The translations under genes were made by a program, and so were the position numbers. A model generated the notes under the pieces. It searched no databases. It saw nothing but the letters and a program-made list of their open reading frames with translations, and was not told the origin of the DNA. From assembly GCA_030428125.1 (NCBI GenBank), contig JAUIBF010000001.1, forward strand, positions 78,102 through 142,101: a stretch of 64,000 nt of DNA, in the 5' to 3' direction. Positions 34,367 to 58,522 of the stretch are shown one piece after another (positions within the stretch are counted from its first letter, which is position 1; every line of letters starts with the position of its first letter). This stretch comes from a bacterium (lineage in GTDB: Bacteria; Patescibacteriota; Saccharimonadia; Saccharimonadales; SZUA-47).

Positions 34367-34397
34367 AGTATCTTATGCTTAACGACTGATGTCAACC
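34367..34397 (-). promoter_or_regulatory. pilA promoter with two 11-nt direct repeats
   Basis: Minus strand: TTGACA (34395-34390), 17 nt, GATACT (34372-34367). The direct repeat TTAAGCATAAG occurs once in the spacer and once just downstream of the -10. Confidence 0.55.
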
Positions 34398-34416
34398 CTA
34401 AAGTATAAAATTTATC

Positions 34417-35634
34417 CTAAATATCGTTTGCCAGACTACTGATAGGGCCAATAACGCTAGCAGCAATTAAGCCGACCATACCACCCATTACCACAATTAG
34501 TATTGGTTCTAAGATGGAGCTCAAGCCTTCTACAGCCGCGTCTACCTCTTCTTCGTAAAAGTCAGCGACCTTAATCAGCACGGTATCTGTCTGACCGGTC
34601 TCTTCGCCTATAGCAAGCATCTGACTAACAATAGGCGGGAAAACCTTGCTATTGGACAGAGGAGTGCTGAATTGTTCGCCATTTGCTACAGCTTTGGCGG
34701 CGTCCATTAACTCTTTCTCGATAACAGTGTTGCCGATAGCTTTAGAGGTAATCTCGATAGATTCAATAACACTCACACCAGCACTCATAAGACTAGCAAA
34801 GATTCTAGAGAATCGGGCGACAGCCATTTTGACTATAAGTATCCTTATGGCAGGGATTTTAAGAAGCAATCTATCGCGAGCTTCACGTCCTTTTGGAGTT
34901 TTTAGAAACTTAAATAGTGCTATCCCACCAAATAAAATTATAGCGACGTGGATATACCAAAATCCTAAGATAAAATCACTTATTCCAAGCATTACCTTGG
35001 TCATTGTAGGTAAGTCTCCACCTGTTAAATCAGCTATGATGGTCCCGACTTTAGGGACAACAATGGTCATCAAAGCAATAAAAACTATAATTGTAATTCC
35101 GATAAGAACCATAGGATAAGTCATAGCGCTTTTGAATTTAGCACGAATCGCTGCGTCTTTTTCTTGTTGAATGGCTAGTTTTTTGAGGATTTCGTCTAAG
35201 ATACCACCTGCTTCTCCTGCACGGACCATATTTATGTATATTGGATTGAAAGTTCCCTTGTATTTCTCTAGAGCATCTGCGAACGATGTCCCACTCTCGA
35301 CGTCCTTACTGATGTTTACCAGCTGTTTTTTAAAAGTTTCATTTTCGGTTTGGTTTTGCATTGTAGCTAGGGATCTAACAAGAGGGACACCGGCGTTAAT
35401 CATTGTCGCTAGCTGTCTAGTGAAAACGACTAAATCTTTCGGTTTAACGCGTCCCGGAGTCCCTTTGGTAAGCAGAGACATTATGTCGCCACCCTTGCCG
35501 GCCTTGTGGACACTTATGGGTTTCATGCCTAATCTGACGAGTGAGCTCCTGGCTGCTGTTTCAGAAGTTGCATCAATCTTGCCCGTTTTGGCCTTGCCGT
35601 CTTTTGCGATTGCTCTGTACTCGAATTCTGCCAT
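34417..35634 (-). CDS. pilC: Type IV pilus platform protein PilC (GspF family)
   Basis: Two T2SSF-type repeats (FTRQLATMINAGVPL...; FSRIFASLMSAGVSV...), 3 TM helices, 405 aa. Confidence 0.93.
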   Translation of the reverse strand: MAEFEYRAIAKDGKAKTGKIDATSETAARSSLVRLGMKPISVHKAGKGGDIMSLLTKGTPGRVKPKDLVVFTRQLATMINAGVPLVRSLATMQNQTENETFKKQLVNISKDVESGTSFADALEKYKGTFNPIYINMVRAGEAGGILDEILKKLAIQQEKDAAIRAKFKSAMTYPMVLIGITIIVFIALMTIVVPKVGTIIADLTGGDLPTMTKVMLGISDFILGFWYIHVAIILFGGIALFKFLKTPKGREARDRLLLKIPAIRILIVKMAVARFSRIFASLMSAGVSVIESIEITSKAIGNTVIEKELMDAAKAVANGEQFSTPLSNSKVFPPIVSQMLAIGEETGQTDTVLIKVADFYEEEVDAAVEGLSSILEPILIVVMGGMVGLIAASVIGPISSLANDI

Positions 35635-35740
35635 GGCTATTGCGCTCCGTTACTCAAGACAAAACCTTTGGTTTTTTCTCGATGCGCAGCAGAATGAAGT
35701 AAGTTCATCCTCCTAGCTGCTCTTTTTCTATTAATCATAT

Positions 35741-37504: not shown

Positions 37505-37786
37505 TTCGTATGGTGACCCTCGCCCAATAAAATAATCAGGCTTACCCCTTAAGCTTAATATTATCACATCTGATTACCTAAGTGTATTCATCAAAAATTT
37601 AAAAAACAGTAGGAAAACAGAACCAAGGCAAGAAAATTTTGTTTTATCCACAAGCGGCATAAGAGTAAAAAACATATAGCATCAAAAAAGCTAAACGTGT
37701 TAAGTAGACATATGCAAAATAGGGCTCTATACTAGTTAAGGTAAAACGAAGCACACAACTAAATTAATGGTATAAGGAGCTGAAAA

Positions 37787-41051: not shown

Positions 41052-42668
41052 ATGAAAATTGCCAAAACATTTAATAAAGTTGCTCTAGTCAGCATGCTCG
41101 CGAGCCTCGTGACTCCACTAGCAATTCTAGTCCCGAAAGTCTCAGCAGCAGCTGTTACTTGGGATGGAGAAGGAGCTGATAATAACTGGTCTACAGCTGC
41201 AAACTGGAGTGGTGATGCAGTACCTGTTGATGGAGACTCTTTAATTTTCGATGTCTCAATTTTATCTCAAAATGAAACTCTAAATAATGACCTAACCGAC
41301 TTGAGTGTAGTTGGGGTAACACGTTCTGGAGATGCTGGGGTTTCCGACCAATTTTCATACACCGTTGAAGGTAACCCTATCATTCTATCTGGTCCCATTG
41401 TTGGTGCTGGAGATGACGAATGGGGACAATTGAGAATGGAGATTGGAATTACGTTAGGGTCAAATGTAACTATTACGAACATGAGCCAAGTCTACTTGGA
41501 CCCACCAAGTACTTTTGATATAGGTGTTTACGATTTAACATTCCAGGGAGAAGCCACTATTTTTGGATTAATTGGTTCAGGAGATGTTTCTATCGAGTCT
41601 GGAAATGTTTCAATTTCATCTATTTCAGATTCAACATATTCAGGAGCAGTTACAGTCACAGGTGGAAAGTTAACTACATCTTCTTCTGGACTTGCAACGG
41701 CATCTTCAATTACAGTGAACTCAAGTGGTGTGTTGTCTATTAGTGGATCCGAGTTTGGAGTTCCACTAGTGCTAGGTGGTACTGGAGGACCTTGTTGGGG
41801 CCCTGATAACTGTGTTTTAGAAACTACCTTTCAAAGCCCGGATCTCACAGGAGGAGTTGAGCTTACTAGTGACGTGACATTCCAGCTAGACGGTGGAACC
41901 ATGAATATCGATGAGCCATTTACTGATAATGATTTCGAAATAGCTCTTGGAACAGGTTCTACCGGTAGCTTAAAGTTGCCAGGTGAAGAAGCTAAAGAAT
42001 CCGAAACAGAAACTATAACTATAGGAAAAGATGACAAGAGCTCTGCTTCTTTAACCGTTTACAACAACCAGACAGTAATAGTAAATGGAGAACGAGGAAG
42101 CGCATATGTATATAATGGAGGGACTCTAAAAGGTACGGGTACCATTACCGGAAACGTATCTATAACAGGGGGCACGTTGGCTCCAGGTGAAAGTCCCGGC
42201 TGTTTAACTATTTCTTCAGGAGGACTAACATTTAGTGGTGGAACTTATGAAGTAGAAATCCAAGGCAGTACAGTTTGTAGCGATTATGATCAAGTTGAAG
42301 TAACAGGTGCAGTAGATCTGAGTAACGACCCTACGCTGGATGTCAATTTCCTGAATAGTTTTGTTCCAGAGTTGAACGATGCATTTATGATTATCGATAA
42401 CGATGCATCTGACGAGATTTCCGGTACGTTTGATGGTTTGGAAGATGGGGCGACATTTACAGTGGATGGCGTTACTTTCCAGATTAACTACAACGGTGGT
42501 GACGGTAATGATGTGATGTTGCTGGTAACAGCAGTGTCAGAAGAGCCAGAAGCTCCAGATACGGGGCTTGAGTCATTAGTATCAAATCCTCTGGTTACAG
42601 TCATCGCGGCACTATCTGCGATTTCAGTATTAGGCGGAATCAGGTTCGTAGACAGTAAAAGAAAATAA
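41052..42668 (+). CDS. Secreted beta-helical repeat surface protein with C-terminal sortase-type sorting signal (PDTG)
   Basis: Signal peptide (...PKVSAAA). VTWDGEGADNNWSTAANWSG..VP and GTLKGTGTITGNVSITGGTLAPGESPG...YDQVEVTG...INYNGGDGNDVMLL are blocks of autotransporter-associated beta-strand repeat proteins. The C-terminus is EAPDTG, a hydrophobic helix, then SKRK. Confidence 0.8.
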   Translation: MKIAKTFNKVALVSMLASLVTPLAILVPKVSAAAVTWDGEGADNNWSTAANWSGDAVPVDGDSLIFDVSILSQNETLNNDLTDLSVVGVTRSGDAGVSDQFSYTVEGNPIILSGPIVGAGDDEWGQLRMEIGITLGSNVTITNMSQVYLDPPSTFDIGVYDLTFQGEATIFGLIGSGDVSIESGNVSISSISDSTYSGAVTVTGGKLTTSSSGLATASSITVNSSGVLSISGSEFGVPLVLGGTGGPCWGPDNCVLETTFQSPDLTGGVELTSDVTFQLDGGTMNIDEPFTDNDFEIALGTGSTGSLKLPGEEAKESETETITIGKDDKSSASLTVYNNQTVIVNGERGSAYVYNGGTLKGTGTITGNVSITGGTLAPGESPGCLTISSGGLTFSGGTYEVEIQGSTVCSDYDQVEVTGAVDLSNDPTLDVNFLNSFVPELNDAFMIIDNDASDEISGTFDGLEDGATFTVDGVTFQINYNGGDGNDVMLLVTAVSEEPEAPDTGLESLVSNPLVTVIAALSAISVLGGIRFVDSKRK

Positions 42669-42734: not shown

Positions 42735-43763
42735 ATGAGTTCCAGAATTAGTTTAAGCAGCCCAGAGATGACAGGTCGAGTACGAAAGTTCGACCAGTAC
42801 ATTCATAATCCTGCAAGATCAAAGCGACAAAGCGCGAGCAAAGAGTCGGCAACCAGAACAAGAATTGTCGAAGCGCCTGTTAAGTCACAAACACAGTTCC
42901 TGCCTAGACCCAAAAGTGTAGTTACTCAATCCCAGCCCATTGTTCATAAGCAGGTACAGGCTAGGAACACCTCAAAAGACATTGCCCTTCAGTCTGTAGC
43001 AGACTCTAAAGAACGAACTGACAATCATGGTTACGTTGTACAGCAGTTCAGTGATGAACAAGTCGTAGATTATGCACCTGTTAAGTCAAAAACAAGTAAA
43101 TTAAGCAAGGCCATGTACGCGCTTGGTTTATTTGTTTTTGTTTTCGCAATCTTTACCTCTGTTCAATCATTCCTGTTCAATAACCAAGCCAGGGAACAGG
43201 TAGCTGCTCTCGGCGTTAACAGTGATGAACAGGGTGCAAGCGAAGGTACCGGAAGTGACCCAAGTGAAGAGCCAGTAAGTAATAGCGCAATTGCGAATTA
43301 TTTTGTAACTAATCCGGAAGACCCCAGATACATTAGAATTCCAGACCTTGGTTTGATGGCCAGAGTAAAAAATCTGGGCATAGATAGTAGTGGAGCAGTT
43401 GATGCTCCAGGAAACATTAACGATGCTGGTTGGTATAACGGCAGCGCAAGACCCGGAGGCGAATACGGTTCTAGCCTGGTATTAGGTCATGTATCTGGCT
43501 GGACGGCTCCAGGAATTTTTAAAAAGGTGGATAGTTTAAAACCAGGATCTGTCATCGAAATTGAAAAAGGTAGTGGGGAACGGATTCAGTATATGGTAAA
43601 GCAAACCAGAAGCGTTAAGGTTGATCAAATCGATATGTCTGAAATATTAACACCAGATAACCCGAATGAAGCAGAACTTAACTTAATGACCTGTTCAGGT
43701 AAGTACAATCGTGAAACCGACACCTACGAAGAACGACTAGTTATTCAAGCTATAAAAATTTAG
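42735..43763 (+). CDS. Sortase (transpeptidase) with long disordered cytoplasmic N-terminus
   Basis: About 125-aa Ser/Lys/Gln-rich N-terminus. TM helix AMYALGLFVFVFAIFTSVQSFLF. Catalytic His (LVLGHVSGW), Cys (LNLMTCSG) and Arg (EERLVIQA). Confidence 0.85.
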   Translation: MSSRISLSSPEMTGRVRKFDQYIHNPARSKRQSASKESATRTRIVEAPVKSQTQFLPRPKSVVTQSQPIVHKQVQARNTSKDIALQSVADSKERTDNHGYVVQQFSDEQVVDYAPVKSKTSKLSKAMYALGLFVFVFAIFTSVQSFLFNNQAREQVAALGVNSDEQGASEGTGSDPSEEPVSNSAIANYFVTNPEDPRYIRIPDLGLMARVKNLGIDSSGAVDAPGNINDAGWYNGSARPGGEYGSSLVLGHVSGWTAPGIFKKVDSLKPGSVIEIEKGSGERIQYMVKQTRSVKVDQIDMSEILTPDNPNEAELNLMTCSGKYNRETDTYEERLVIQAIKI

Positions 43764-46164: not shown

Positions 46165-49100
46165 TTGCAAGGGCGCAACATAAAAAAGTTTCTGGAACAG
46201 TTCAGGGTTATTATAGTAACGATAGTCTATTTTTTGACGTTGTTAGCAAGTTCCTCAGCACTTTTATATTTAAAATCTGAAAAAGCAAGTGCTGCCACAG
46301 ATGTGTTTCGACTAACATCATATGAACTTCAGTCGGGTGAGTACACATCTACCGGATATTCGCTTACTTTGAACAACAACCTATCTTCAAATTACTTTGT
46401 CATGATTTCTGGTCCTTCAGAAGCTACAGGCTCGAGGGCTGTTAACGAAGATCAAGTTAGAGTTGTCGGAGATCCGTTCGGGAATTTTGGATCAACATCT
46501 GCAACCAATGAGCTAGAGCTTAACAGAGGATCAGCGTCTAATGATTGGATTGGAATTATAACTGTTGTCGAGTGTATGGTCGAATGTTCGACCATGGGTT
46601 TTGAGTTGTCTGAAGTTTTAGAAACTTCCTTGCCCGCAGGATCTGCAGATGCCCTGCAGACTGTAAATGATAATCTAGCCTCATCATATACATCCAATAC
46701 TGTGCCTCTGGGGGGTCATTATGGTGGAGGCATCGATTCTGCAGGAAGTGATGCTAATTCATACGCGACAACTTTAGGTGTAAAGATTACTAAAACAGGC
46801 TCAAACCAGTTGCAATTTGAGAGGTATGGTGCTGAAAGCAGGGCGCCAGCAGCAGCAACAATTACGACATACGTAACTGAATGGGGATCAGAGTGGAACG
46901 TACAGGACGTAAATGTGACCGGCACCAATGCTGGGTCGGGAGTTGATTCAACATCTGAATACAACACAGCATCGGTCAGTTCTGTTACGAGAAATAATAC
47001 TTTTGTATGGGGTGCTGGTTATGCGTATGACGATGGGCTGGGTGATGGTGCGCTTGGGCAAGTAGTAACGTTAGGCGACGGGGTTAATCTAAATGCCACC
47101 GAGACTTCTGTCGCTGTCGGAGCAGAAGGAGCGCAGATTTCTCCAGGTAGGAACTTCCAGGTTTATGTAATAGAGCACCCAAACCTAGCAGTAGATTACA
47201 GGTTTAGGGTAAGAGGGGACCAGGGGGCAGCATCTGGATACCAAGAACTTACACAAACGGTAAACACAGCTAATGGTACAGAAGGTTATGATAATTCATC
47301 TACAGATGTTCAATATACTGAAGGGTACAGAACTGCCCTTTTTTACAGCACCTCAGGTGGTACAGGGCAAGCGTACTCTAGGACAGGAGCCTGGAGCCTG
47401 CGACACATTTCGAGTACAGACCTAACTTTTTACCGTGCATATGCGGGACAACCAATTTCAGGGTGGATACAGTCAATAGATTTTGCAGCGTTTGAGTTTT
47501 CTAATGTTGATACTAGGCAGCAAATATTCAGATGGCGAGATGACTCAACAGATGTAAATTCATCCGGAGGGTGGTTAGCTGCGGAAGACACAAATTTGAC
47601 TGAACAAGCAAAAAATACAAATTTAAGATTGCGTTTTCGCGTTGCAAATCACGGCACAACTCCCGAAGATGGCGCTAGACAGTACGAGCTAGAATTTGCT
47701 CACAAGAATGATACTAGTTGTGATTTAGTGTCAGGCTGGAGTGGTGTTTCTGATAGTACAATCGATGAGTTTGAGCTATATAATTCGGCTCAAATCTCTC
47801 CCGACGGTGAACTGCTAACAGGTAATTTGCTAAGCGATCCCGACGGCTTCAGCTTCGTTACAGGAGAAGCGAGGGAGGTAGCAGATACAACTAACGCAAT
47901 CGGTCCACTGGCTGCTAGCGCTTATACAGAGTTAGAATATGCCCTAAGACCAACTGACAATGCAGTAACAGGACAGACCTATTGCTTAAGGCTCTATGAT
48001 GCAGCAAATTCGACGGACCTAGAAGCTTATAGTGTTTATCCTGAAATTACAATTCAATCGACCGAAGTAAACACTACTGGTTTGGGTGAAGCAGGAACGT
48101 TTACTGCACCGGCTAATGGAGGCTGGACAACAGTTAATTTCGCTGGGAGTTACTCAGCTCCAGTTGTTGTCGGTCTCAGTAACTCACACAACGGTGAAAG
48201 TGCGCTGGTGTTTGAGTCTAGAAACGTGACGACGACAAGCGCCGATATGAGGCTGTGCGAGTCAGAAGGCTCTACCTCTAATGGGTGCGATACTCATTCA
48301 ACTGAAACGGGTGGGTATATGGTAATCGATGCTAGTATTGCGGCTGTAACGGATGGAATAGAAGCAGGAACGTTTACGGCGAACGGACAAGCCGACTCAA
48401 ACAGTGTAGTCACAAATTATAGTGAGAGCTTTTCGGCTGCACCATATGTGTTTGCAAATGTTAACACGGTTACTAGCAGCGAATTTCCGATAGAAGTTGT
48501 AATTTCAGCGACTTCAGTAGCTAGTTTTACTGCAGGTATTTGTGATCACCTGCAAGGCAGCGTGGATGCCTGTGACGGCTCTCATGGAAACGAATCTGTG
48601 GGGTGGGTTGCGATTGAGCCAGGTAATGAGCCCTTCCAGGAACAGTTTGATAGCGGAATCGAAAATATTGGAAATGGCTTATGGACCCCTGTATCTTTTT
48701 CTCCATCGTTCTCTTCAACACCGGTGTTATTATCAGCTTCTCAGACTGATTTAGGGGGTCAAGATGTCGAAATTGATGAAGGGCGAAACGTATCAACAAC
48801 AGGCGCAGAAATTAGGCCGTGTGAAATTGATACGCTGGATACTTGCGATAACCATAATGCTGATGATGTAGCCTGGTTTGCGATCGAGGCAGGTCAATTT
48901 TTAAACACAACAGAGATAGATCAGGACGGATTTAGGTTTTATGTTAATGAGAACTCGGCTACTCCATCTACTCCTGCTGAGGACGAAAACACAGAGTTAA
49001 CAGGTGTAGATAACGGCGACGTGATACATATAAGAATTGCTAATCAAGTCGGGGCATCACCACTAGCTGCCGACGCTGCAGCTTTCAAACTTCAGTATGC

Positions 49101-51303
49101 ACAAGCCTCGAATTGTAGCGCAGCCGGTTCCTGGAATGATGTAGGTGGATTAGGGTCGGGAGTAATTTGGCGCGGCTTTAATAACGCAGCGCCTGCTGAT
49201 GGGTCTGCTCTACCCTCGTCTCTTCTAGATAGCACAACTAACACTGCACAAACTTATGAAGAAGCAAATAACTCAGTTGGTAACCCATCGCAGATTGCCA
49301 GTGGTGATAGAGGTGAATGGGGATGGATTGTGCAAAATAATGGTGCAAGCAACTTCACATCGTATTGTTTCAGGATGACATTATCAGATGGGAGTGCTTT
49401 TAACTACGCCAGATACCCTAAGTTGACAACATCAAGTGGTGTGGTTAATTTATCACCGAATTCACCTGCGAATCTTGATCAAGAACGGCTGTCAACAACG
49501 CAGATAAGCACAGGCGAGACGATTAATGAAACAGATGTTGTATTTACGAGCGATATTTCTGATCAAAACGCTAACGACATCGTTCAACTTTGCGTCGAAG
49601 TGAAAGAGATTGGTCAAGCTTTCGTGAATAACGAAGATGCTTGCGGTAGTGCGGAAACATACACCGGAGCAGCAGTTCCAGCAAGTGTGACGGTTAGTGG
49701 TTTCGAACACGCTAAATCATATCATTGGCAAGCAAGAGTTAAAGATGCAGCTGATGCGTATTCCGGATGGAGTAGTTTTGGGGGAAATGCGGAAATTGAT
49801 TCGGATTTCGAAATCGATACCGTGGCACCATCAGGTGTTGTTTATGATGGTAACGCTGCTGGTGTAGACATAGAGTTTAATGCCGGAGAATTAGACGAGC
49901 TAGAAGCAAACTGGGAACAAGTTGATGGTAAAACCCCAGATGAAGTATCGGGTTTAGTTTTATGGCTTGACGGCGATGATGTTGAAAATGACGGAACTGA
50001 TCCAGCCAACGGTAGTTCTGTAGCGCTTTGGAGTGATAGGTCTGGATTAGGCAATGACATAGGGGGCACCGGTGCAGCAACATTTGATGCTACGCTTCAA
50101 GCAATTTCGTTCACTGATGATCCGTTGCCGTTTGATGATAATTTCGACCGAAGTGGAGGGAACTCTAGTGCTCACAATATATACTCCGTTGTTAGGGGCA
50201 ATGCCGGGACTGGAACCAACCATGTATGGTATGAAACAACGACCCCTAGAGTTGCTCCTGCTGAAAACGGAATTCTGGGTGGAGCGACGGCCTTATCAGG
50301 TAATAATTTCTGGTCCAACCACATTACTGATACCAAAGTTTTAACGTTAGAATATGGATCTGGTGGGACTTCTACTGCATGGCTTGACAGAACTCAAGAG
50401 TATCAGTTTAGCGAAACTCAAAATTTTGCAGATTCTCAAAGAATAGTAATTGGTGATGATACAACAGGTGGAAATAGACTTGAGGCAGGCGAGTACGTCC
50501 ATGAAATTATTGTATTCAACCAAGATGTAACCTCAGGGGATAGAAATGATTTGTGGGAACACCTAGAATGTAAGTGGCAAATTAGAGATTGTTCAGTTAC
50601 ATACGATTACTCTATAGGTACGTCCCCGGGTGGAATTGACATTCTGGGTTGGACTGCATCTGGAGCTTCAACTAGTGCATCTGCAAGTGGACTCAGCTTA
50701 ACGACTGGAACTCAATACTACTTTAATGTTCGAATCACAGACACAGCAGGTAATCAGACGATTGTAAGTAGCGATGGGCAACAAGTGGCTCCATCACTAT
50801 CGTTTAGCACCTCTACAGGAGGTAGTGGGATTACTTTTGAAAATCTGAATTCATCTAATTCATTTACTGACACAGAAACAACTATAGTGTCAACCAGTAC
50901 CAATGCACATAACGGGTATGAAGTCAGGTCATACACGAGTGGTTCACTAGAAAATGCTTTGTTAGACACAATCGGTGGGTTTGATGGAGGTACATACGCT
51001 GCAACGGATACGTGGGAGTCGGGCGATACAGGTTTCGGCTATACATCCAGCGATGTTTTAGTAGATGGAGTCAATAGGTTCAACGCTTCTACGTGTCCGG
51101 GTGGAGGTAGTGGAGGGCCGTGCTTCGCGCCATTTAGTTTAACAGCACCGGGTGACATAGTTGCGGACAATGACGGGATTATATCCGGTAGTCCAGTCGT
51201 AAATGAACAATTTACAATTACTCATCGTGTCACTACTGATGAATTCCAGCCAATTGGCACCTATCAAACGACATTAATTTTTCAAGCAATTGCGAAATAC
51301 TAA
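46165..51303 (+). CDS. Giant secreted multi-lectin-domain surface protein (P1) with WxL-like/pilin-like C-terminal module
   Basis: 1712 aa. TTG start 6 nt after CAGGGGCA, with TATAAT at 46131-46136. Signal anchor ending SEKASA/ATD. Two FR[WF]...YCFR beta-sandwich modules. Three tandem ~95-aa Cys-pair repeats (48079-48900). LamG-like block LVLWLDGDD...ECKW (49948-50580). The C-terminal 169 aa are homologous to the P3 tail. Confidence 0.85.
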   Translation: MQGRNIKKFLEQFRVIIVTIVYFLTLLASSSALLYLKSEKASAATDVFRLTSYELQSGEYTSTGYSLTLNNNLSSNYFVMISGPSEATGSRAVNEDQVRVVGDPFGNFGSTSATNELELNRGSASNDWIGIITVVECMVECSTMGFELSEVLETSLPAGSADALQTVNDNLASSYTSNTVPLGGHYGGGIDSAGSDANSYATTLGVKITKTGSNQLQFERYGAESRAPAAATITTYVTEWGSEWNVQDVNVTGTNAGSGVDSTSEYNTASVSSVTRNNTFVWGAGYAYDDGLGDGALGQVVTLGDGVNLNATETSVAVGAEGAQISPGRNFQVYVIEHPNLAVDYRFRVRGDQGAASGYQELTQTVNTANGTEGYDNSSTDVQYTEGYRTALFYSTSGGTGQAYSRTGAWSLRHISSTDLTFYRAYAGQPISGWIQSIDFAAFEFSNVDTRQQIFRWRDDSTDVNSSGGWLAAEDTNLTEQAKNTNLRLRFRVANHGTTPEDGARQYELEFAHKNDTSCDLVSGWSGVSDSTIDEFELYNSAQISPDGELLTGNLLSDPDGFSFVTGEAREVADTTNAIGPLAASAYTELEYALRPTDNAVTGQTYCLRLYDAANSTDLEAYSVYPEITIQSTEVNTTGLGEAGTFTAPANGGWTTVNFAGSYSAPVVVGLSNSHNGESALVFESRNVTTTSADMRLCESEGSTSNGCDTHSTETGGYMVIDASIAAVTDGIEAGTFTANGQADSNSVVTNYSESFSAAPYVFANVNTVTSSEFPIEVVISATSVASFTAGICDHLQGSVDACDGSHGNESVGWVAIEPGNEPFQEQFDSGIENIGNGLWTPVSFSPSFSSTPVLLSASQTDLGGQDVEIDEGRNVSTTGAEIRPCEIDTLDTCDNHNADDVAWFAIEAGQFLNTTEIDQDGFRFYVNENSATPSTPAEDENTELTGVDNGDVIHIRIANQVGASPLAADAAAFKLQYAQASNCSAAGSWNDVGGLGSGVIWRGFNNAAPADGSALPSSLLDSTTNTAQTYEEANNSVGNPSQIASGDRGEWGWIVQNNGASNFTSYCFRMTLSDGSAFNYARYPKLTTSSGVVNLSPNSPANLDQERLSTTQISTGETINETDVVFTSDISDQNANDIVQLCVEVKEIGQAFVNNEDACGSAETYTGAAVPASVTVSGFEHAKSYHWQARVKDAADAYSGWSSFGGNAEIDSDFEIDTVAPSGVVYDGNAAGVDIEFNAGELDELEANWEQVDGKTPDEVSGLVLWLDGDDVENDGTDPANGSSVALWSDRSGLGNDIGGTGAATFDATLQAISFTDDPLPFDDNFDRSGGNSSAHNIYSVVRGNAGTGTNHVWYETTTPRVAPAENGILGGATALSGNNFWSNHITDTKVLTLEYGSGGTSTAWLDRTQEYQFSETQNFADSQRIVIGDDTTGGNRLEAGEYVHEIIVFNQDVTSGDRNDLWEHLECKWQIRDCSVTYDYSIGTSPGGIDILGWTASGASTSASASGLSLTTGTQYYFNVRITDTAGNQTIVSSDGQQVAPSLSFSTSTGGSGITFENLNSSNSFTDTETTIVSTSTNAHNGYEVRSYTSGSLENALLDTIGGFDGGTYAATDTWESGDTGFGYTSSDVLVDGVNRFNASTCPGGGSGGPCFAPFSLTAPGDIVADNDGIISGSPVVNEQFTITHRVTTDEFQPIGTYQTTLIFQAIAKY
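50794..51300 (+). other. C-terminal module of P1 shared with P3
   Basis: Aligned blocks P1/P3: PSLSFS/PTLTFT, STNAHNGYEVRSYTSGSLEN/TTNAPGGYTVYIRHTGQLSN, GDTGFGYTSSD/GTEGWGYTTED, FAPF/YAPF, PIGTYQTTLIFQAIAKY/PFGTYQTTIIYTVASTY (both are the protein C-termini). Confidence 0.85.
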
Positions 51304-51316
51304 TATACTAATAATT

Positions 51317-52219
51317 ATGAGGTTTTTTGCTGTATTTTTGCTTGCTTTTGTACTTTTTGCATTGCCGAAAACAGTCTATGCTGATGAAACGTCTATAACT
51401 GCATCTCCAGCAATTATCGATGTGCCAGCAAAAGTTGGAGAAAGCTCTAAAAGAGAAATTAAAATTACCAATAATAACGACTACCCTTTGCCGGTTAGCA
51501 TAGAAGCTCAAGCAGCAATAATCGACGGAGAGCCGTTAAATGATGGTGTAAATTCTAGATATGATGTAAGTGATTGGATCAGGTTTGACGAAGACACGTA
51601 CCTATTCGAAGCTGGTCAAACTAGATCTATACCGTTTACTGTGACGCCACCTTTTACCGCAACTGCAGGTGGGCATTACGCAAACATTAGTATTAGAGGA
51701 CTTGCTTTAGAATCTAATTTTGATGAACTGGGTTTAGTATTTCCAGAGATTGGTGTCCCCGTGCTTGTTTCTTTGCCTGGTGAAGTAGTAGAAAAGATAG
51801 AATTTTCCAATAACAACCTATTCCCAATATCAACGCAGCCAAACAAAAAGTATTTATTTGAGACCAAATTATCAAATGTTGGGACCGTTCATAATTTAGT
51901 ACAACCAAAAATAGTGATAGAGAAAGAAGGTCAGTTAGTTGATGAGTTTTTATTTAGGCCATCAGTAATTTTACCTGGAACCCAGAAAGTTTTTTCAACA
52001 GAATGGAGTGTTCCGGACTTTGGCATATATAATGCACACGTTGAACTAGTTTATGGCTCTAAGAATCAAAAAATCAGTTCCAATTCTGAAGTAGTAGTCT
52101 CAACTCCAAATCTGAAGAGTCTTGCTAACGTTTTTGTCATGACAGGAGTAGTAGTTTACTTAATACCACGCCGAAAAAACATCAAGCCTGCCGTTAAAAA
52201 AGTGTTTACTAACACCTAA
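51317..52219 (+). CDS. Signal-peptide / two Ig-like domains / C-terminal TM anchor protein (P2), DUF916-DUF3324-like architecture
   Basis: ATG at 51317 (MRFFAVFLLAFVLFALPKTVYA/DE). ITASPAIIDVPAKVGESSKREIKITNNNDYPLPV...SDWIRFDE...GQTRSIPFTVTPP..ATAGGHYANISI. C-terminal helix LANVFVMTGVVVYLI plus basic tail. Paralogous to P4. Confidence 0.75.
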   Translation: MRFFAVFLLAFVLFALPKTVYADETSITASPAIIDVPAKVGESSKREIKITNNNDYPLPVSIEAQAAIIDGEPLNDGVNSRYDVSDWIRFDEDTYLFEAGQTRSIPFTVTPPFTATAGGHYANISIRGLALESNFDELGLVFPEIGVPVLVSLPGEVVEKIEFSNNNLFPISTQPNKKYLFETKLSNVGTVHNLVQPKIVIEKEGQLVDEFLFRPSVILPGTQKVFSTEWSVPDFGIYNAHVELVYGSKNQKISSNSEVVVSTPNLKSLANVFVMTGVVVYLIPRRKNIKPAVKKVFTNT

Positions 52220-52286
52220 AATAAAGCTTGCGCTTTTTATCTCTCTTAGCTACAATGTTAACCAACTGAGTAATTGAGGGAAAAAT

Positions 52287-53357
52287 ATGTCAAAAACAAA
52301 GTTAATTTTCAGGCAGAATGCTTTTATTGCCGCCTTATTGTTAGTAGCAGCGATCCTATTGCCAGCCATTCAGGTCGGAGCTCTTACAACTAGTTCACTA
52401 ACACTAAGTGATCCACGAACATCTCAAACAAGCGAGTATACTTTCGCATCAAGTGGATTTACTACTGCCACAACCATCAACTGTATACAGCTAGATATCG
52501 GTACTGCATCAGACGGTAGTGGCGACGTGGGACTAGACTTGTCGGGAATAGCTTTGGGCACAGACACCATTTCTTCTGGTGGCTCTTGGGCTGATGCTAG
52601 CGTTGATGGTGCAACTGATCAGTTGCGAGCAACATCAGCTGGTGGTGCTACGCCAAACTCAAGCGGTTCTATCACCTGGACGGGCATAGTTAATGGTGCA
52701 ACAGAAGGTGCTACATATTATGGTGTGTTTGAAACATTTGCTAATACAGACTGTTCAACAGGTGGTTCAATTGACTCAGTGACAGTAGCGTTTACTTACA
52801 CCGATGGAGAGCTGGTTCAGTTGACTATCGATCCTACCCTTACCTTTACGCTTTCTGATGTAGCATCAGGTCAGCCAGTGAATGGCGTTAATACCACAAT
52901 CGGATCAACTGCTACAGGAATAAACCATGGTAACGCAGTGACATTTGGAGCAAATGGCATTTCAGCGCACGATCTCAACGTAACTACTAATGCCCCGGGT
53001 GGCTACACTGTTTACATTAGACACACCGGCCAACTTTCAAACGGCACGGACGACATAGACAATCTGACTGGAGGTGCTACAAACGCAGTGCCTACACTGT
53101 TCACAGCAGCTGGCACAGAGGGTTGGGGGTATACAACAGAAGATAATGATTTGGCAGGTGGTACGGGAGATAGGTTTACTAATCCAGGAAACTACTACGC
53201 CCCATTTGATACAAGTAATGAGCCAGTGGTTGACAACACCAACGCAGTTCCAGGTGGAGAAACCGTAAGAGTTGGACATCAGGTCGGAATTGCATCGACT
53301 ACACCGTTTGGAACATACCAAACAACAATTATCTACACAGTAGCATCAACCTATTAG
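52287..53357 (+). CDS. Secreted 356-aa protein (P3) with the same C-terminal module as P1; candidate major subunit
   Basis: Signal peptide (...PAIQVGA/LTT). Thr/Gly/Ser-rich. Own TACAAT -10 and GAGGGA SD after a small hairpin downstream of P2. C-terminal 173 aa (52836-53354) homologous to the P1 tail. Confidence 0.8.
   Translation: MSKTKLIFRQNAFIAALLLVAAILLPAIQVGALTTSSLTLSDPRTSQTSEYTFASSGFTTATTINCIQLDIGTASDGSGDVGLDLSGIALGTDTISSGGSWADASVDGATDQLRATSAGGATPNSSGSITWTGIVNGATEGATYYGVFETFANTDCSTGGSIDSVTVAFTYTDGELVQLTIDPTLTFTLSDVASGQPVNGVNTTIGSTATGINHGNAVTFGANGISAHDLNVTTNAPGGYTVYIRHTGQLSNGTDDIDNLTGGATNAVPTLFTAAGTEGWGYTTEDNDLAGGTGDRFTNPGNYYAPFDTSNEPVVDNTNAVPGGETVRVGHQVGIASTTPFGTYQTTIIYTVASTY
52836..53354 (+). 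other. C-terminal module of P3 shared with P1
   Basis: See 50794-51300. The motif order and the terminal GTYQTT[LI]I[FY] strand are conserved. Confidence 0.85.
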
Positions 53358-53442
53358 AAGTAAGCACCCGTTTCTCGTAAATACTTTATGGGTAGTTTAT
53401 TTCCTTGAGAGATGTTTAAAAAAAGGGTAGTATAAAGGGAGC

Positions 53443-54411
53443 ATGAGGACAAATATTCTAAAGTGTCTTGGGTGGACACTAATTTGTATAGTATCTGGGG
53501 TTTTATTAGTTATCCCATCTATAATTTCAGCTCAAGAACAAACAGATACAGTTTCTCTGGGTATCTCACCTCAGCTACTTGATCTAACTGCCAATCGAGG
53601 TGAAACATTGCAAAATACGTTTCGGTTGACTAACGCATCGGCAGCAACAGTAGATATAGTTACCACACCCAAAAACTTCACACCAAGAGGAGAAGAAGGG
53701 GCAGTTGACCTAACGATTGACAGTACAAACTTTTCTCTTGCAGACTGGATTTCTGTTCAGCCTGAGAGGGTAGTGATTGAACCTGGTCAAACGCAAGATT
53801 TTGATGTAACCATTGATGTTCCAGAAAACGCTGAGTCAGGAAGTCATTTTGGATCTGTAGTCTTTCAAACTGTACCTCCTGAAGATGAAACAGCCGACGC
53901 ACTTGTTAGTCAGGAAATAGCTCCAGTTATACTAGTTAAGATTTCTGGTGAAACATTTGAAGCTGCAGACATAGAAGAGTTTAAGACGGATAACTCGAGT
54001 TACGGCTCTAACCCGACAGTAAGTTTTATTTCGAGAATAGAAAATACTGGTAATGTACATTTTAAACCAACAGGTAAAATTACTATTAAAAATATGTGGG
54101 GCGATGAAGTCGAAGTTATCGAACTAGATAGAAGAAATGTATTGCCGGACTCTATTAGGCAGTTTACTTCTGAATGGAATCCGGAAGGAACGTTGTTCGG
54201 AAGGTATAGTGCCACGCTTACGGTTGTTTATGGAGATAATGATGAAATTAAAACTGCAGAAACTAGTTTTTACATTGTGCCCTGGAAGATAATAATTCCA
54301 GTTGTTTTGGTAACGGCTTTGGTGGTGTTTGTTTTCATTAAATTCAACAAGAGACTACTATTGGCTGCTAAAGTATTGAGTGGAAAAGAAAATTCAGATA
54401 AAGAAGAGTAA
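53443..54411 (+). CDS. Signal-peptide / two Ig-like domains / C-terminal TM anchor protein (P4), paralog of P2
   Basis: Signal peptide (...SIISAQE). LGISPQLLDLTANRGETLQNTFRLTNASAATVDIV...LADWISVQPE...GQTQDFDVTIDVPENAESGSHFGSVVF. C-terminal helix IIIPVVLVTALVVFVFI plus a KFNKR tail. Confidence 0.75.
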   Translation: MRTNILKCLGWTLICIVSGVLLVIPSIISAQEQTDTVSLGISPQLLDLTANRGETLQNTFRLTNASAATVDIVTTPKNFTPRGEEGAVDLTIDSTNFSLADWISVQPERVVIEPGQTQDFDVTIDVPENAESGSHFGSVVFQTVPPEDETADALVSQEIAPVILVKISGETFEAADIEEFKTDNSSYGSNPTVSFISRIENTGNVHFKPTGKITIKNMWGDEVEVIELDRRNVLPDSIRQFTSEWNPEGTLFGRYSATLTVVYGDNDEIKTAETSFYIVPWKIIIPVVLVTALVVFVFIKFNKRLLLAAKVLSGKENSDKEE

Positions 54412-54420
54412 TCTGTTGCC

Positions 54421-55725
54421 ATGAAGTTTTTAATGGGGGTGCTGACGGTTTCTCTAGCAATATTCTTGTCTGGGACTACTGCAGGGGCAATATCGATTTC
54501 CGAACAAGTCGAGTTAACCGTAGCAGATACTAGGCTAACCATTAATGGATATGCAGCCCCAAATTCCATAATCAGGTTTGAAGAGTCATCAAGCGTGATA
54601 GCAACTACTACCTCGAATAGTTCAGGATTTTTTACAAAGACTCTAAATTCACAGCCAGCAGGTATTAGAAATATGAGGGTTTATTTCCTGGACAGTAATA
54701 ACTTAGGCTCCAGTAAGATAAATTTATCAACCAGCCTGCAATCTCAAACCGAAACAGTAGTGAATGTGCTACTGGCCCCTACCATAACTTTTGGATCGCA
54801 AAGCAAAGTATCTGCTGGGAGCACCATATCAATCAGAGGCTACACACTGCCAAATAAAAAGGTAAACATCTCGGTTGATTTTGGCGCCTTGCTTTTTTCA
54901 ACAAAAAGTGACAACCTGGGCTATTACGAATATTTGCTTGACACGAGCCTAGTAACTACAGGCGATCATGTCATAAACACCAGAGTCTTAAATGGTGGTG
55001 ATATGAGTATTTCATCAGAACAGCTGAAGTTTAATGTGAAAAATAAAAATACTCCGAACCCAGACATAGTTGTTTCGCCTAGTTTGCTTACACCCCCCAT
55101 AACAAATTCTCCCAAAGATGGGGCGCTTATAGATGGTGACAGAGTTACCATATATGGTGAGGCCCAGCCAGGTACACAGATAAATGTCTACGAGAACGGT
55201 GTGATTATCGGCTCTGTAATTACCGACGATAGTGGTAGTTGGTCGTTTTTATACAAAGCTAAGTCAACACCCGTTACGTTAAATTTCGAAGCCTGCAGAG
55301 GTGGTGAATGTAGTGTTCAGTCTAAATCCATAACATTAAATTTTAAGTCACTCAACTCCGTTTGTTTCCAGGATTTTGAACTAGAAGCGTACAGATTTTG
55401 GGATATAGAAGTAGGTCAAGAATTTTCACTTGCACTAAAAAATGAAAACAAAGGCAAGCTACTGATTGATTGGGGCGACGGAACGACTGAAAGTTTCAGT
55501 CAGGATACTCACTCCGCTAAAAAATTCGAGAAAACCTATGCCAAACATGGTGTGTATAGTGGAACGATCGAACTAAGCTATGATAACTGTGTAGAAATTA
55601 AGTATTTCTCAGTAAATGTAAAAAAAAGCGAAGAGCAAAACAGAGTCTTAATTTTGTTGATATTGTCATTTGCAATAGCTGCAGGTAGTTACCTGGTCGG
55701 TCGAGACAAAATTGATAAAAGCTAG
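54421..55725 (+). CDS. Membrane-anchored surface protein with three Big-like repeats and a PKD-like domain (P5)
   Basis: Signal peptide (...GTTAGA). Repeats LTINGYAAPNSIIRF..., ISIRGYTLPNKKVNI..., VTIYGEAQPGTQINVYENGVIIGSVITDDSGSWSF. PKD-like IDWGDGTTESF...HGVYSGTIEL. C-terminal TM VLILLILSFAIAAGSYLVG. Confidence 0.75.
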   Translation: MKFLMGVLTVSLAIFLSGTTAGAISISEQVELTVADTRLTINGYAAPNSIIRFEESSSVIATTTSNSSGFFTKTLNSQPAGIRNMRVYFLDSNNLGSSKINLSTSLQSQTETVVNVLLAPTITFGSQSKVSAGSTISIRGYTLPNKKVNISVDFGALLFSTKSDNLGYYEYLLDTSLVTTGDHVINTRVLNGGDMSISSEQLKFNVKNKNTPNPDIVVSPSLLTPPITNSPKDGALIDGDRVTIYGEAQPGTQINVYENGVIIGSVITDDSGSWSFLYKAKSTPVTLNFEACRGGECSVQSKSITLNFKSLNSVCFQDFELEAYRFWDIEVGQEFSLALKNENKGKLLIDWGDGTTESFSQDTHSAKKFEKTYAKHGVYSGTIELSYDNCVEIKYFSVNVKKSEEQNRVLILLILSFAIAAGSYLVGRDKIDKS

Positions 55726-55778: not shown

Positions 55779-56144
55779 ATGCTTATCGTTTACTTTTTTC
55801 AGTGGTGGTACACCACCGGCTGGTTACTCAGAGTAAAGATGCTACTAGAGCATATGTCTTCAGTTGCGAATTTTTATTCAGTAGGCACACTTCTAAAAAC
55901 CATGTTTTCTCCTTGGAGACAAATAGTTTCAACTACACGAGCAGATCAGGGAGTAGACGCAAAATTTCAGGCGTTTCTAGATAATATAATTTCACGGTTT
56001 GTTGGATTTTTTGTTAGGCTTTTCGTTCTGATAGCAGCCGTAGTATTCGTAACATTAACGATTCTAGCAAACTTAGTGCTACTCATCATCTGGCCTGTAG
56101 CACCAGTTTTGCCACTAATTTTAGTCATTGTAGGTGTCACATGA
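55779..56144 (+). CDS. Small membrane protein (P6) coupled to the membrane AAA+ ATPase
   Basis: 121 aa. N-terminal FFQWWYTTGW and FSPWRQI blocks. C-terminal double TM. TACAAT (55766-55771) lies 7 nt before the ATG (leaderless-type). ATGA overlap with P7. Confidence 0.6.
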   Translation: MLIVYFFQWWYTTGWLLRVKMLLEHMSSVANFYSVGTLLKTMFSPWRQIVSTTRADQGVDAKFQAFLDNIISRFVGFFVRLFVLIAAVVFVTLTILANLVLLIIWPVAPVLPLILVIVGVT

Positions 56145-58522
56145 ACGCTGTTTATAACAAGCATTCGAAAAGAGCTCAAGAAACTAAGTTTCTGGTGTTT
56201 TTCAGCGACAATAAAAGAAATGTATTGTTCATAGTCGCAATGCTATTACTATTTTTTGGAATTGCATTATGGTTCTATAACTCTCTTTTCGGTTCTCTGA
56301 TTACCTCACTAAGTATTCTGATGTATTTACCGCTAGTTTGGCACAAGCTCTACCTGTCGACTTTGAGCCACCTGCCGATAACAGGAGATACGATAATTGT
56401 TGAAGATAATTTATCACCATATGTGGCCGGAAGAGTTAATGATATTGATAGCCCTTTTTCCATCTGGTCGGCAATTAAAGGGTGCTGGCAGCAAAGATTT
56501 TTCAGCCTGCATTATGGTATCGAACCAGAACTTTTTGATAGCCTAACCAAAGATAAAACAGACTTAACAGCGATGTGGGATAGCGCGTTTGGTTTAAGCC
56601 AAAAGCATCAAGAGACTGGTATTTCCACTGCTTCATTAATTATTTCTTTGATGAAAATGTTGCCAGGATACGAGCAAATTTTGGCAGATAGAAATTTAGA
56701 TATTAATGAACTTGAGAGCAGTATTGATTGGGTTCATCATGCTGAGTTGATAATCGATTACAAACCAAGAAATAAGGGTGCCGGGGGTATTGCAAGAGAT
56801 TGGACAAGCGGCTTTACTCCGACGCTAAATGAGATTGCTCATAACATTAGTCTTGAATTGGAGCAAAGAGGGCATTTGACAAGGGGCCTAGAAGGTCACA
56901 GGGCTACTCTAGATGAAATAACGTCAGCGCTGAAAGGTGGAAAACAAAATGTAATTTTGGTTGGTGATGTCGGTGTAGGTAAAACTATTACAGTTTACGG
57001 CTTCGCGTCTAGATTGATGTTGGATAAAAGCTTACCAGACTCGATTAGATACCATCAAGTATTCGCCATAGATCCAACCAGTTTGATTACTAGCAGTGAC
57101 GACCCTAACAAAGTAGAAGCTATATTTACTCGACTTATTTTAGAGGCTCAAAAATCTAAAAATGCCATATTGTTCTTTGACGATGCATCAAAATTCTTTT
57201 CTACAGGTACGGGACAGGTGAACATCGGTAAAATGCTACAGTCGGTAATAGAAAGTAATTCTATACCAGTAATTTTTGCTATGACTCCAGTCGAGTGGCA
57301 GAATGTTTCTGCGTCAAATGAAGCTCTAGCTGGTGCTCTAAATGTTGTGAAGATTCAGGCGGCCGAAAATCAGCACACTTTAAGGATACTTGAGGATCAA
57401 TCCTTATATATTGAAGGACGAAATAAAGTAGTAATTTCCTATCAGGCATTGAAGTCCGCAGTCGATTTGTCAGATCGTTACATTCGTGAAATTTCAGCTC
57501 CAGGAAATGCAATTAGACTACTAGAAAATTCTATTAATCACGCTGAAAATGGATTAGTCACAACTAAATCAGTGCAATCAAGCATTGAAGCAGCTCAAGG
57601 TGTGAAAATTCAAACAGCAAGTGGTAGCGAGAAACAAGAGTTACTTAATCTCGAAGACGAAATCCATAAAAGGATGATAAACCAGTATAGAGCTGTTAAA
57701 GTTGTTGCTGATGCACTGAGGCGCGCCAGAAGTGGTGTGAATAATCCCGATAAGCCCATCGGAACATTTCTATTTCTTGGTCCAACTGGTGTTGGTAAAA
57801 CTGAATTGTCTAAAGCAATATCAGCAACGTATTTTGGAGACGAAAAAAACTTAGTGCGCGTTGACATGAACGAACTGACAAACAGCACTGATGTCGCAAG
57901 GCTTATTGACGAAACAGCAGAGAACGGTTTACTCGCAAGTGTCGGAAGGAATCCGTTCAGTGTAGTTTTGTTTGATGAAATAGAAAAAGCTCATCCCAAC
58001 GTAATAAACTCCATTCTTCAAATGCTTGATGAAGGTGAAATGAGGGATTCGAAAAACCGTCAAATATCTTTCAAGGACGCTATAGTTATCGCGACATCTA
58101 ATGCTGGTGCAGACAAAATCAGAGAATACATAGATGACGGTAAAGAAGTAGAGCAATTTGAAGAAGAGTTCACTAACTGCTTGATAGATTCAGGAATTTT
58201 CAAACCGGAGTTCTTAAACCGTTTCGATGAAATGGTCGTGTTCAGGCCTTTGAAAATGGAGGAACTAGTTCAGGTTGTAGATATTTTAATGGCGGCAGTA
58301 AATAGTAATTTGTCTAAGCAAAAAGTTAAAGTTGAGCTTACAAATTCGGCAAAGCAGTGGCTGGCAAATCAAGGATATGATCAAAGACTTGGTGCACGAC
58401 CTCTGCGAAGAAAAGTTCAAAGTACAGTAGAGAACATCATCGCTAAGAAAATACTTAGTCCTGATTTCCGTCCAGGAGCTACCATATCTCTAGATGTGCC
58501 GGATCTAGAGGCCGAGGGTTAG
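56141..58522 (+). CDS. Membrane-anchored ClpA/ClpB-family double AAA+ ATPase (P7) with degenerate D1
   Basis: Two N-terminal TM helices (VLFIVAMLLLFFGIALWFY; LITSLSILMYLPLVW). D1 has Walker A GDVGVGKT, but its Walker B is ILFFDDAS and the position of the ERRF arginine fingers reads NEALAGAL. D2 is canonical: GPTGVGKTELSKA, VVLFDEIEKAH, ATSNAG, FLNRFD, GARPLRR. No IGF/IGL ClpP loop seen. Confidence 0.85.
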   Translation: MNAVYNKHSKRAQETKFLVFFSDNKRNVLFIVAMLLLFFGIALWFYNSLFGSLITSLSILMYLPLVWHKLYLSTLSHLPITGDTIIVEDNLSPYVAGRVNDIDSPFSIWSAIKGCWQQRFFSLHYGIEPELFDSLTKDKTDLTAMWDSAFGLSQKHQETGISTASLIISLMKMLPGYEQILADRNLDINELESSIDWVHHAELIIDYKPRNKGAGGIARDWTSGFTPTLNEIAHNISLELEQRGHLTRGLEGHRATLDEITSALKGGKQNVILVGDVGVGKTITVYGFASRLMLDKSLPDSIRYHQVFAIDPTSLITSSDDPNKVEAIFTRLILEAQKSKNAILFFDDASKFFSTGTGQVNIGKMLQSVIESNSIPVIFAMTPVEWQNVSASNEALAGALNVVKIQAAENQHTLRILEDQSLYIEGRNKVVISYQALKSAVDLSDRYIREISAPGNAIRLLENSINHAENGLVTTKSVQSSIEAAQGVKIQTASGSEKQELLNLEDEIHKRMINQYRAVKVVADALRRARSGVNNPDKPIGTFLFLGPTGVGKTELSKAISATYFGDEKNLVRVDMNELTNSTDVARLIDETAENGLLASVGRNPFSVVLFDEIEKAHPNVINSILQMLDEGEMRDSKNRQISFKDAIVIATSNAGADKIREYIDDGKEVEQFEEEFTNCLIDSGIFKPEFLNRFDEMVVFRPLKMEELVQVVDILMAAVNSNLSKQKVKVELTNSAKQWLANQGYDQRLGARPLRRKVQSTVENIIAKKILSPDFRPGATISLDVPDLEAEG

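Follow-up and report, generated by a model that had tools for sequence, protein, structure and literature searches.

The window studied here is a 64,000-nucleotide stretch of a Saccharibacteria contig (JAUIBF010000001.1) that carries, at window positions 46165-55725 of the + strand, five consecutive genes for hypothetical proteins, designated P1 to P5. With intergenic spacings of 13, 67, 85 and 9 nucleotides, the genes form a compact cassette that most likely encodes a giant adhesin (P1), a pilin (P3), two chaperones (P2 and P4) and an anchor (P5). An earlier reading of the DNA letters alone (the original prediction) had delimited the open reading frames (ORFs) of P2 and P4 and described a P1-P2-P3-P4 alternation; the coordinates match and the gene order is as claimed. 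An independent gene call on the public contig, which carries identical genes, also gives products of 300 and 322 residues for P2 and P4. The P2 start is the ATG at 51317, and an alternative TTG at 51290 would give a protein of 309 residues. No further copies of P2 or P4 were found in the window by tblastn. Hydropathy analyses identified an N-terminal signal-like segment in all five proteins and a C-terminal helix in P2, P4 and P5 only, and none of the five carries an LPXTG-like sorting signal.

P2 and P4 are true paralogs, which BLASTP aligns over 260 residues with 26% identity and 47% positives (E = 3e-19). Inside this alignment lie all of the shared motifs that the original prediction had singled out: SITASPAIIDV in P2 and SLGISPQLLDL in P4, followed by SDWI..FEAGQTR..FTVTPP..AGGHYANI in P2 and ADWI..IEPGQTQ..DVTIDVP..ESGSHFGSV in P4. 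The proposed layout of a signal peptide, two beta domains, one transmembrane helix and a basic tail was recovered as well, from hydropathy for both proteins and from an AlphaFold2 (AF2) model for P4. In P2, the signal peptide (residues 1-22) is followed by two Ig-like domains, a transmembrane helix (residues 268-284) and the basic tail PRRKNIKPAVKK; its two-domain fold is assigned by alignment to P4, the paralog that was modeled. In P4, the signal peptide spans residues ~1-30 and the transmembrane helix residues ~281-300, ahead of a basic/charged tail (KFNKR...).

The AF2 model of P4, predicted from a 61-sequence alignment, has a predicted local distance difference test score (pLDDT) of 92.2 and a predicted template modeling score (pTM) of 0.78. 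It consists of a first beta-sandwich (residues 39-144 plus a strand at 162-167), a second one (residues 175-278) and a helix (residues 281-300). The best Foldseek match in the PDB was the WxLIP protein of Enterococcus faecium in complex with a long WxL protein (9i25_C, E = 5e-11; also 9i1y), with an alignment of 263 columns that spans both P4 domains; a literature search found no publication behind these two entries. Next came RbmA and then the chaperones CfaA, CsuC, FimC, Caf1M, DraB and YadV of chaperone-usher (CU) systems, the chaperones having a probability of 1.00, E values of 1e-10 to 1e-8, template modeling scores of 0.50-0.57 and ~250 aligned columns. Most of the CU structures are complexes with a subunit (CfaA-CfaB, 4y2o; CsuC-CsuA/B, 6fqa; FimC-FimA, 4dwh; Caf1M-Caf1, 1p5u). 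The Ig-like sandwich anticipated for these proteins is what the model returned, with WxLIP and PapD-like chaperones as top matches. As modeled, the fold class of P4 is clear and its finer assignment is not.

Conservation in the P4 family, measured by column entropy in an alignment of 61 P4 orthologs (A1), is highest in two stretches, E-P/S-G-S-H-F-G-S-V and S-Q-E-I-A-P-V-I-L, which the genome survey described below also selected as most conserved. On the P4 model they correspond to E-S-G-S-H-F-G-S-V (residues 131-139) and S-Q-E-I-A-P-V-I-L (residues 156-164), the final pair of strands in domain 1, with a variable loop between them. Glu158 and Leu164 (P4 numbering) are invariant in both paralog families, and BLASTP aligns residues ~117-152 of P2 to the same hairpin. 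The G1 strand that CU chaperones donate to their subunits belongs to the last hairpin of domain 1 (F1-G1). Because the P4 hairpin sits at the position of both the CU F1-G1 hairpin and the inserting hairpin of WxLIP, and is the most conserved part of the protein, it is the best candidate for a donor strand.

Sequence families led in the same two directions. The sole consistent Pfam family was PF06030 (WxLIP_PGBD, formerly DUF916), matched by P4 with E = 5e-5 (23.7 bits) and by P2 with E = 0.028 (14.9 bits), both scores under the gathering threshold of 27.3. It was also matched by 53 of the 61 aligned P4 orthologs (E<0.01; best 8e-8) and is the precomputed assignment of many of the P4 matches in a word-indexed database. 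Together with the top structural match (9i25_C), these results support the analogy to the DUF916/DUF3324 (WxLIP) architecture suggested originally. PF11797 (DUF3324/WxLIP_HBD) had no match in P2, P4 or the 61 P4 orthologs at E<0.01, and the PapD families PF00345 and PF02753 were absent among the Pfam matches of the same proteins; a fimbrial chaperone model was matched marginally (E = 0.0036) by one of the 61 orthologs. Many weak Pfam matches were to generic Ig-like families such as fn3_5, Big_2 and BACON. In addition, 43 of the 61 orthologs weakly matched the NCBIfam entry NF041740, a 'choice-of-anchor T family protein' model (best 6.6e-7; cut-off 70 bits), which hints at a wider kinship of domain 1 of P4 with variously anchored surface proteins.

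Judged by profile matches, the P2/P4 family is very large. Homologs in the word-indexed database numbered 217 for P4 and 14, all close, for P2, and a profile of the joint family matched, at E<=1e-3, 18,510 representative clusters, of which 2,430 remained at the stricter limit of E<=1e-30. Sequence searches of the PDB with P3, P4 and the profiles A1 and A2 returned no relevant match. Rosetta-stone fusions of a chaperone to a pilin were considered and set aside: the long representatives were instead tandem chaperone-chaperone fusions (524-802 residues; P0255, P0259, P0261 and P0372 were examined) or C-terminally extended chaperones, many of which continue for 100-250 residues beyond the transmembrane helix. 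At one related locus (L031, 8017-9945) a single ORF of 642 residues joins a position-A (P2-type) chaperone to a P3-like pilin, and may be a read-through or an assembly error.

The partner genes provide the connection to pili. P3 combines a signal peptide, an N-terminal strand, a beta-sandwich N-terminal domain, a linker (GELVQLTIDPTLTF) and a C-terminal module that ends in ...GTYQTTIIYTVASTY. Its mature mass is ~33 kDa and its one cysteine pair (C66-C156) is invariant. In the AF2 model of P3 (pLDDT 88.7, pTM 0.55), the N-terminal beta-sandwich and a C-terminal beta domain flank the conserved linker, with an interdomain geometry that is uncertain at this pTM. The last strand reaches the carboxy-terminus of the 356-residue protein and carries invariant residues (G342, 14 residues from the C-terminus, Y344 and Y350) and a nearly invariant Y356. 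This amphipathic strand recalls the conserved C-terminal motif of CU subunits. An invariant W280-G-Y, located ~70 residues ahead of the C-terminal strand, resembles the WxL motif and does not match it, and no WxL domain was found by Pfam searches in P1 or P3 or, at E<0.1, in 55 P3 orthologs. NCBIfam release 20 holds models named for the pilus of the Candidate Phyla Radiation (CPR), among them NF058581 ('Pam pilus system pilin subunit'), which was matched by 45 of the 55 P3 orthologs (best 7e-10).

The tail of P1 is a second copy of this module: residues 1575-1712 are 33% identical to residues 230-356 of P3 (BLASTP, E = 7e-8), which substantiates the common tail that had been claimed for the two proteins. 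The P1 tail also matched NF058581 (CPR_Pam_pilin_C) along positions 3-148 of the 148 in the model, with E = 1.9e-4 and a score under the 55-bit cut-off. P1 has an N-terminal signal/anchor segment at residues 12-36 and 18 cysteines, all in nine close, spaced pairs. Its orthologs range from 764 to 2823 residues, the tail being kept and the body variable. P1 is probably a tip adhesin with a pilin-type C-terminal module. Within its body, three segments of ~100 residues (~620-900 and ~1190-1440) each end in ...W-x-A-I-E-(A/P)-G, two of the three contain a C(E)...C-D-x-H motif (698-711 and 886-897), and a stretch from LVLWLDGDD...SGLGND appears lectin (LamG)-like by eye. The internal repeats were not significant in a self-BLAST, and Pfam recognized no domain in P1.

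The last product of the cassette, P5, has a signal peptide, Ig-like Big_6 domains (Pfam, 6.6e-11) and a C-terminal transmembrane helix (residues 407-427). It matched NF058578 (CPR_pilus_PamR) with E = 5.7e-11 and 41.8 bits, against a cut-off of 300. The same model was matched by 10 of 27 proteins in the P5 position of related loci (best 3e-27). P5 is the probable terminator and membrane anchor of the system.

Table 1. Genes and segments of the five-gene cassette (window coordinates).
Feature	Position	Strand	Basis
P1, secreted giant protein, 1712 residues	46165..51303	+	ORF; hydropathy; cysteine positions
P1 C-terminal tail module, putative Pam-pilin C-terminal domain (~160 residues)	50821..51300	+	NF058581; BLASTP against P3
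P2, position-A chaperone-like protein, 300 residues	51317..52219	+	ORF; BLASTP against P4; hydropathy; PF06030
P2 segment GGHYANISI...LVFPEIGVPVLVSL (~residues 117-152), candidate donor strand	51665..51772	+	BLASTP; putative role
P3, secreted pilin-like subunit, 356 residues	52287..53357	+	ORF; alignment; AF2
P4, position-B chaperone-like protein, 322 residues	53443..54411	+	ORF; Pfam; AF2; Foldseek
P4 residues 131-167, candidate F1-G1-like donor hairpin	53833..53943	+	Column entropy on AF2 model; putative function
P5, PamR-like protein, 434 residues	54421..55725	+	NF058578; Big_6; hydropathy

A survey of one genome per species yielded 40 related loci, from metagenome-assembled genomes of Saccharibacteria, WWE3, Woesebacteria and Portnoybacteria and from some labeled as non-CPR (possibly mis-binned); the closest are from Candidatus Saccharibacteria. 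The same order is kept in 31 of the 40 loci, which span several CPR classes (Saccharibacteria, WWE3, Woesebacteria): a giant gene with the P1 tail, a position-A ortholog, a P3-like gene (once or twice), a second chaperone-like gene and, wherever the sequence continues, a P5-like gene. In a neighbor-joining tree, every position-B (P4-type) chaperone falls in one clade, apart from the position-A (P2-type) proteins. The duplication therefore precedes the divergence of these CPR classes, with both paralogs staying at their own positions. By the conserved order and the position-specific clades, the pairs are co-inherited, as the original prediction required. In one locus (L012), the giant gene is missing together with the position-A chaperone. 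Mean pairwise identities over 25 complete loci were highest for the P1 tail (56%) and the C-terminal module of P3 (57%), compared to 42% for the N-terminal domain of P3, 43% for the position-B chaperone, 27% for the position-A chaperone and 26% for the P5-type anchor. A test on distance matrices gave a weak signal between P4-type chaperones and the P3 C-terminal module (partial r = 0.32).

Several loci depart from the standard arrangement. Two of them (L035, 3639-7770; L036, 1962-6010) have, in place of the giant, a small protein of 356-358 residues with the same tail, giving the order pilin-chaperone-pilin-chaperone, and the position-A chaperones of both stand out as outliers in the tree. Divergent chaperone-like genes with 24-29% identity to P4 were found in L038 (7810-9712), L040 (9965-11840), L041 (290-3218) and L039 (16377-17396, - strand). 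A P5-like gene follows them, and BLAST with the window proteins detected no P1- or P3-like genes beside them. In L039 the divergent gene exists besides a standard cassette, and in L041 (Portnoybacteria) two chaperone-like genes surround an anchor-like gene, these being the only cassette-type genes present. The divergent loci L038 and L040 had no match to the Pam models. These four loci may represent a second locus type.

The closest described system is the Pam pilus. Two filaments of Ca. Mycosynbacter amalyticus (Saccharimonadia) have been solved by cryo-electron microscopy (cryo-EM), and in both PamA and PamB the inter-domain linker is donor-strand exchanged into the truncated Ig-like C-domain of the next subunit (Troman et al., 2026; bioRxiv 10.64898/2026.03.03.709456). 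From AlphaFold and Foldseek analyses, PamC and PamD were proposed to be FimC/PapD-like chaperones with a C-terminal transmembrane helix unlike Gram-negative ones, and PamR a transmembrane-anchored terminator (Troman et al., 2026). P2 and P4 share with PamC and PamD the signal peptide, the two FimC/PapD-like beta-sandwiches and the C-terminal helix; P3 has the N-domain, linker and C-terminal beta domain layout of PamA and PamB. Each operon has two paralogous chaperones, pilins whose C-terminal domain is of the Pam type and a PamR-like protein with a transmembrane anchor, and both come from the class Saccharimonadia of the same superphylum. The operons differ in gene content, which is listed as PamC, PamB, PamR, PamD, PamE, PamA and PamT for Pam and is giant-chaperone-pilin-chaperone-anchor here, with one small pilin and the 1712-residue giant bearing a pilin module. 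PamB (38.7 kDa) has three cysteine pairs and PamA (55.3 kDa) two, whereas the smaller P3 has one. Further, the scanned ORFs of the window did not reveal the ATP-synthase neighborhood described for pam operons, and Ca. Mycosynbacter amalyticus is not among the 40 surveyed loci. The locus is most likely a divergent Pam-type pilus cassette, simpler, strictly ordered and equipped with a giant adhesin. The membrane-tethered PapD-like chaperone envisaged in the original prediction gains support from the CU matches in Foldseek, from the same proposal for PamC and PamD in the preprint and from the partners' matches to Pam models.

We consider it likely that P2 and P4 serve as the two dedicated, membrane-anchored chaperones in the assembly of a Pam-type donor-strand pilus in Saccharibacteria, a CPR lineage. 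Paralogy, topology, fold, the conserved gene order, the ancient position-specific duplication and the links of the partner proteins to Pam models are the observations behind this reading. All five products would be exported by Sec, and P2 and P4 would stay on the outer face of the cytoplasmic membrane via their C-terminal helix. There, their Ig-like ectodomains would bind the C-terminal pilin module of a freshly exported subunit, with P2 serving P1, the giant, and P4 serving P3, the major pilin. The pilin module is envisioned as an incomplete Ig-like fold that the domain 1 hairpin of the chaperone completes (donor-strand complementation), holding the subunit at the membrane until a strand from the next subunit replaces that of the chaperone (donor-strand exchange). 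With strand exchange at the membrane, the fibre would therefore grow at its base and need neither usher nor outer membrane. P1 would be distal in the fibre, as an adhesin, and the N-terminal strand of the PamR-like P5 would enter the last subunit to cap and anchor the fibre. Strand complementation, the domain 1 hairpin as the donated strand, the P2-P1 and P4-P3 specificity and the formation of a fibre by this cassette are the inferred parts of this reading. The conservation pattern supports the reading as a whole, since the chaperones peak in the domain 1 hairpin and the subunits in their C-terminal modules.

The CU pathway offers the same parallels and some differences. PapD, FimC, Caf1M, CsuC and CfaA have the two-Ig-domain fold of P4; conservation in the P4 family peaks at the domain 1 hairpin to which the donor G1 strand of CU chaperones belongs, and the subunits of both end in a conserved C-terminal strand. 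CU chaperones are, however, soluble periplasmic proteins, whereas P2 and P4 are membrane-anchored in cells with no outer membrane, and no usher-like gene was found in the cassette or in the 40 related loci. We did not identify in P2 or P4 the conserved Arg8/Lys112 cleft pair of the CU chaperones.

A number of results weigh against the chaperone-pilus assignment. The NCBIfam model of the Pam chaperones was matched by neither P2, P4, the 61 orthologs nor the divergent relatives; the P3 of the window does not itself match NF058581, and every match to a Pam model was under its curated cut-off. Based on these models, kinship of the cassette with Pam is homology at the family level, not equivalog membership. 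PamC and PamD (WP_260763277.1 and WP_260763284.1) were likened to P2 and P4 by their description, and the homology is indirect. In the structural comparisons, the template modeling scores of P4 to WxLIP and CU chaperones (TMt, 0.48-0.57) are modest, generic two-Ig proteins (RbmA, CEP192, ciliary ASH-domain proteins) reached similar Foldseek E values, and the whole P3 model retrieved only generic adhesins with two domains, neither a Pam nor a WxL chain being among its 50 best matches. Both predictions, of P4 and of P3, are of monomers. Nor did the distance-matrix test couple P2-type chaperones to the P1 tail (partial r = 0.07). Lastly, the original prediction claimed a dedicated one-to-one partnership. 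The conserved alternation and the joint absence in L012 uphold the pairing, but it is not strict: L037 has a giant gene and no position-A chaperone, and L017, L022 and L028 each combine a pair of pilin genes with one position-B chaperone.

An unlikely alternative is that P2 and P4 are static anchors of the WxLIP type, like those proposed for the DUF916-DUF3324 proteins of Firmicute WxL clusters, that permanently bind the C-terminal module of P1 and P3 in a non-filamentous surface adhesin complex, where domain 1 may touch peptidoglycan. In Firmicutes, WxLIP proteins combine DUF916, DUF3324 and a transmembrane helix, and AlphaFold2 models have a hairpin of their domain 1 completing the beta-sandwich of WxL (Hassan et al., PMC10599100). 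The clusters that encode them always include two WxL proteins, one small and one large, and a DUF916 protein (PMC9772566). The likeness extends to the signal peptide, the two IgG-like domains, the C-terminal helix and the short tail of P2 and P4, and to the presence, beside this two-Ig partner, of a large and a small protein with a common C-terminal module, a layout that parallels the WxL clusters (PMC9772566, PMC10599100). A static anchor is also what one would expect from the top structural match, WxLIP solved alone as well as in complex with a long WxL protein, and from WxLIP_PGBD as the one recurrent Pfam family, and the transmembrane helix fits a permanent tether and a chaperone equally well. 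There are also differences. The P1 and P3 modules lack the Pfam WxL domain (PF13731, with two W-x-L motifs) and the second W-x-L motif, the domain was likewise undetected in the 55 P3 orthologs, and in P2 and P4 PF11797 is undetected and PF06030 scores under threshold. WxLIP proteins belong to Firmicutes (Lactobacillales/Bacillales) and are described as linkers of the cell wall and the host, whereas P2 and P4 are CPR proteins with two paralogs per cluster and a proposed role as pilus chaperones. Moreover, the partner module matches the Pam pilin C model and Pam pilins form donor-strand filaments by cryo-EM, while a separate transmembrane-anchored protein, the PamR-like P5, already gives the cassette its anchor. 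These points favor the chaperone assignment over permanent tethering.

We regard it as very improbable that P2 and P4 have no partnership with P1 and P3 at the strand level and merely share an operon with them as Ig-like adhesins or scaffolds of the cell surface or matrix, generic proteins of the RbmA kind: RbmA and tandem Ig/FnIII proteins do equal the chaperones in Foldseek, many weak Pfam matches are to generic Ig-like families and P2-type proteins show no co-evolution with the P1 tail, but the fixed alternation with ancient position-specific paralogs across CPR classes, conservation that peaks in one hairpin of domain 1 rather than on an exposed distal surface, and the solved WxLIP-WxL complex of the nearest structural relative speak against it.

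Several other genes lie around the cassette. Upstream, a 538-residue secreted protein (41052-42668, + strand) ends in an LPXTG-like sorting signal (...PEAPDTG, a hydrophobic helix and KRK), and its gene is directly followed by a sortase gene (42735-43763, + strand; Pfam Sortase, 1.6e-16). The sortase/RNase Y pair also lies upstream of the pilus cassette in L006, L007, L008 and L010. We rejected an involvement of the sortase with P1-P5 because these proteins have no LPXTG-like signal and the sortase has its own substrate gene nearby. Type IV pilus genes lie on the - strand at 32638-37567 and encode PilM (32638-33702), PilC/T2SSF (34417-35634) and PilB/T2SSE (35741-37567). Located 9-14 kb upstream of the cassette, they indicate that the genome has two unrelated, closely spaced fibre systems. 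Downstream, the gene of a small membrane protein (P6; 55779-56144, + strand) overlaps by 4 nucleotides the gene (56141-58522, + strand) of a 793-residue ClpB/ClpA-like double-AAA+ ATPase with an apparently membrane-embedded N-terminus. When 41 loci were searched by BLAST, both were recovered only in L001, whose contig is identical to the window, and we discarded them as cassette parts; they are probably outside it.

The kind of system and the proposed role of its chaperones are already known from the 2026 preprint and from NCBIfam. What appears to be unreported is the link in sequence and structure between the CPR chaperones and the Firmicute WxLIP/DUF916 proteins, as well as the size of the family and the ancient, position-specific duplication. 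The preprint mentions neither WxL nor DUF916 nor DUF3324 (bioRxiv 10.64898/2026.03.03.709456), and no link between Saccharibacteria and DUF916 was found in the retrievable literature. We tentatively raise the possibility that Pam pili and the Firmicute WxL clusters are two branches of one ancient, usher-less system of surface assembly in bacteria that lack an outer membrane. In such a scenario, which we consider less likely than not, a transmembrane-anchored two-Ig chaperone (WxLIP, PamC/D and P2/P4 being the same protein type) might complete and hand over incomplete-Ig subunits, and the WxL domain could conceivably be homologous to the C-domain of Pam pilins. For this common origin we note that the 18,510 clusters matched by our profile far outnumber the few hundred pilin-positive genomes found by the searches of the preprint (Troman et al., 2026).

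As read here, the cassette is a compact variant of the Pam pilus, whose order is conserved over several CPR classes and predicts which chaperone serves which subunit. CPR bacteria (Patescibacteria) live attached to host cells, and their surface fibres rank among the first candidates for recognizing the host. If the WxLIP link is true, the biology of donor-strand pili would be connected to Firmicute virulence clusters of a family that is well known but mechanistically vague. And if the two systems had a common origin, WxL proteins may also undergo strand exchange to form oligomers or fibres, and an origin of the Pam system within the CPR alone would no longer hold.

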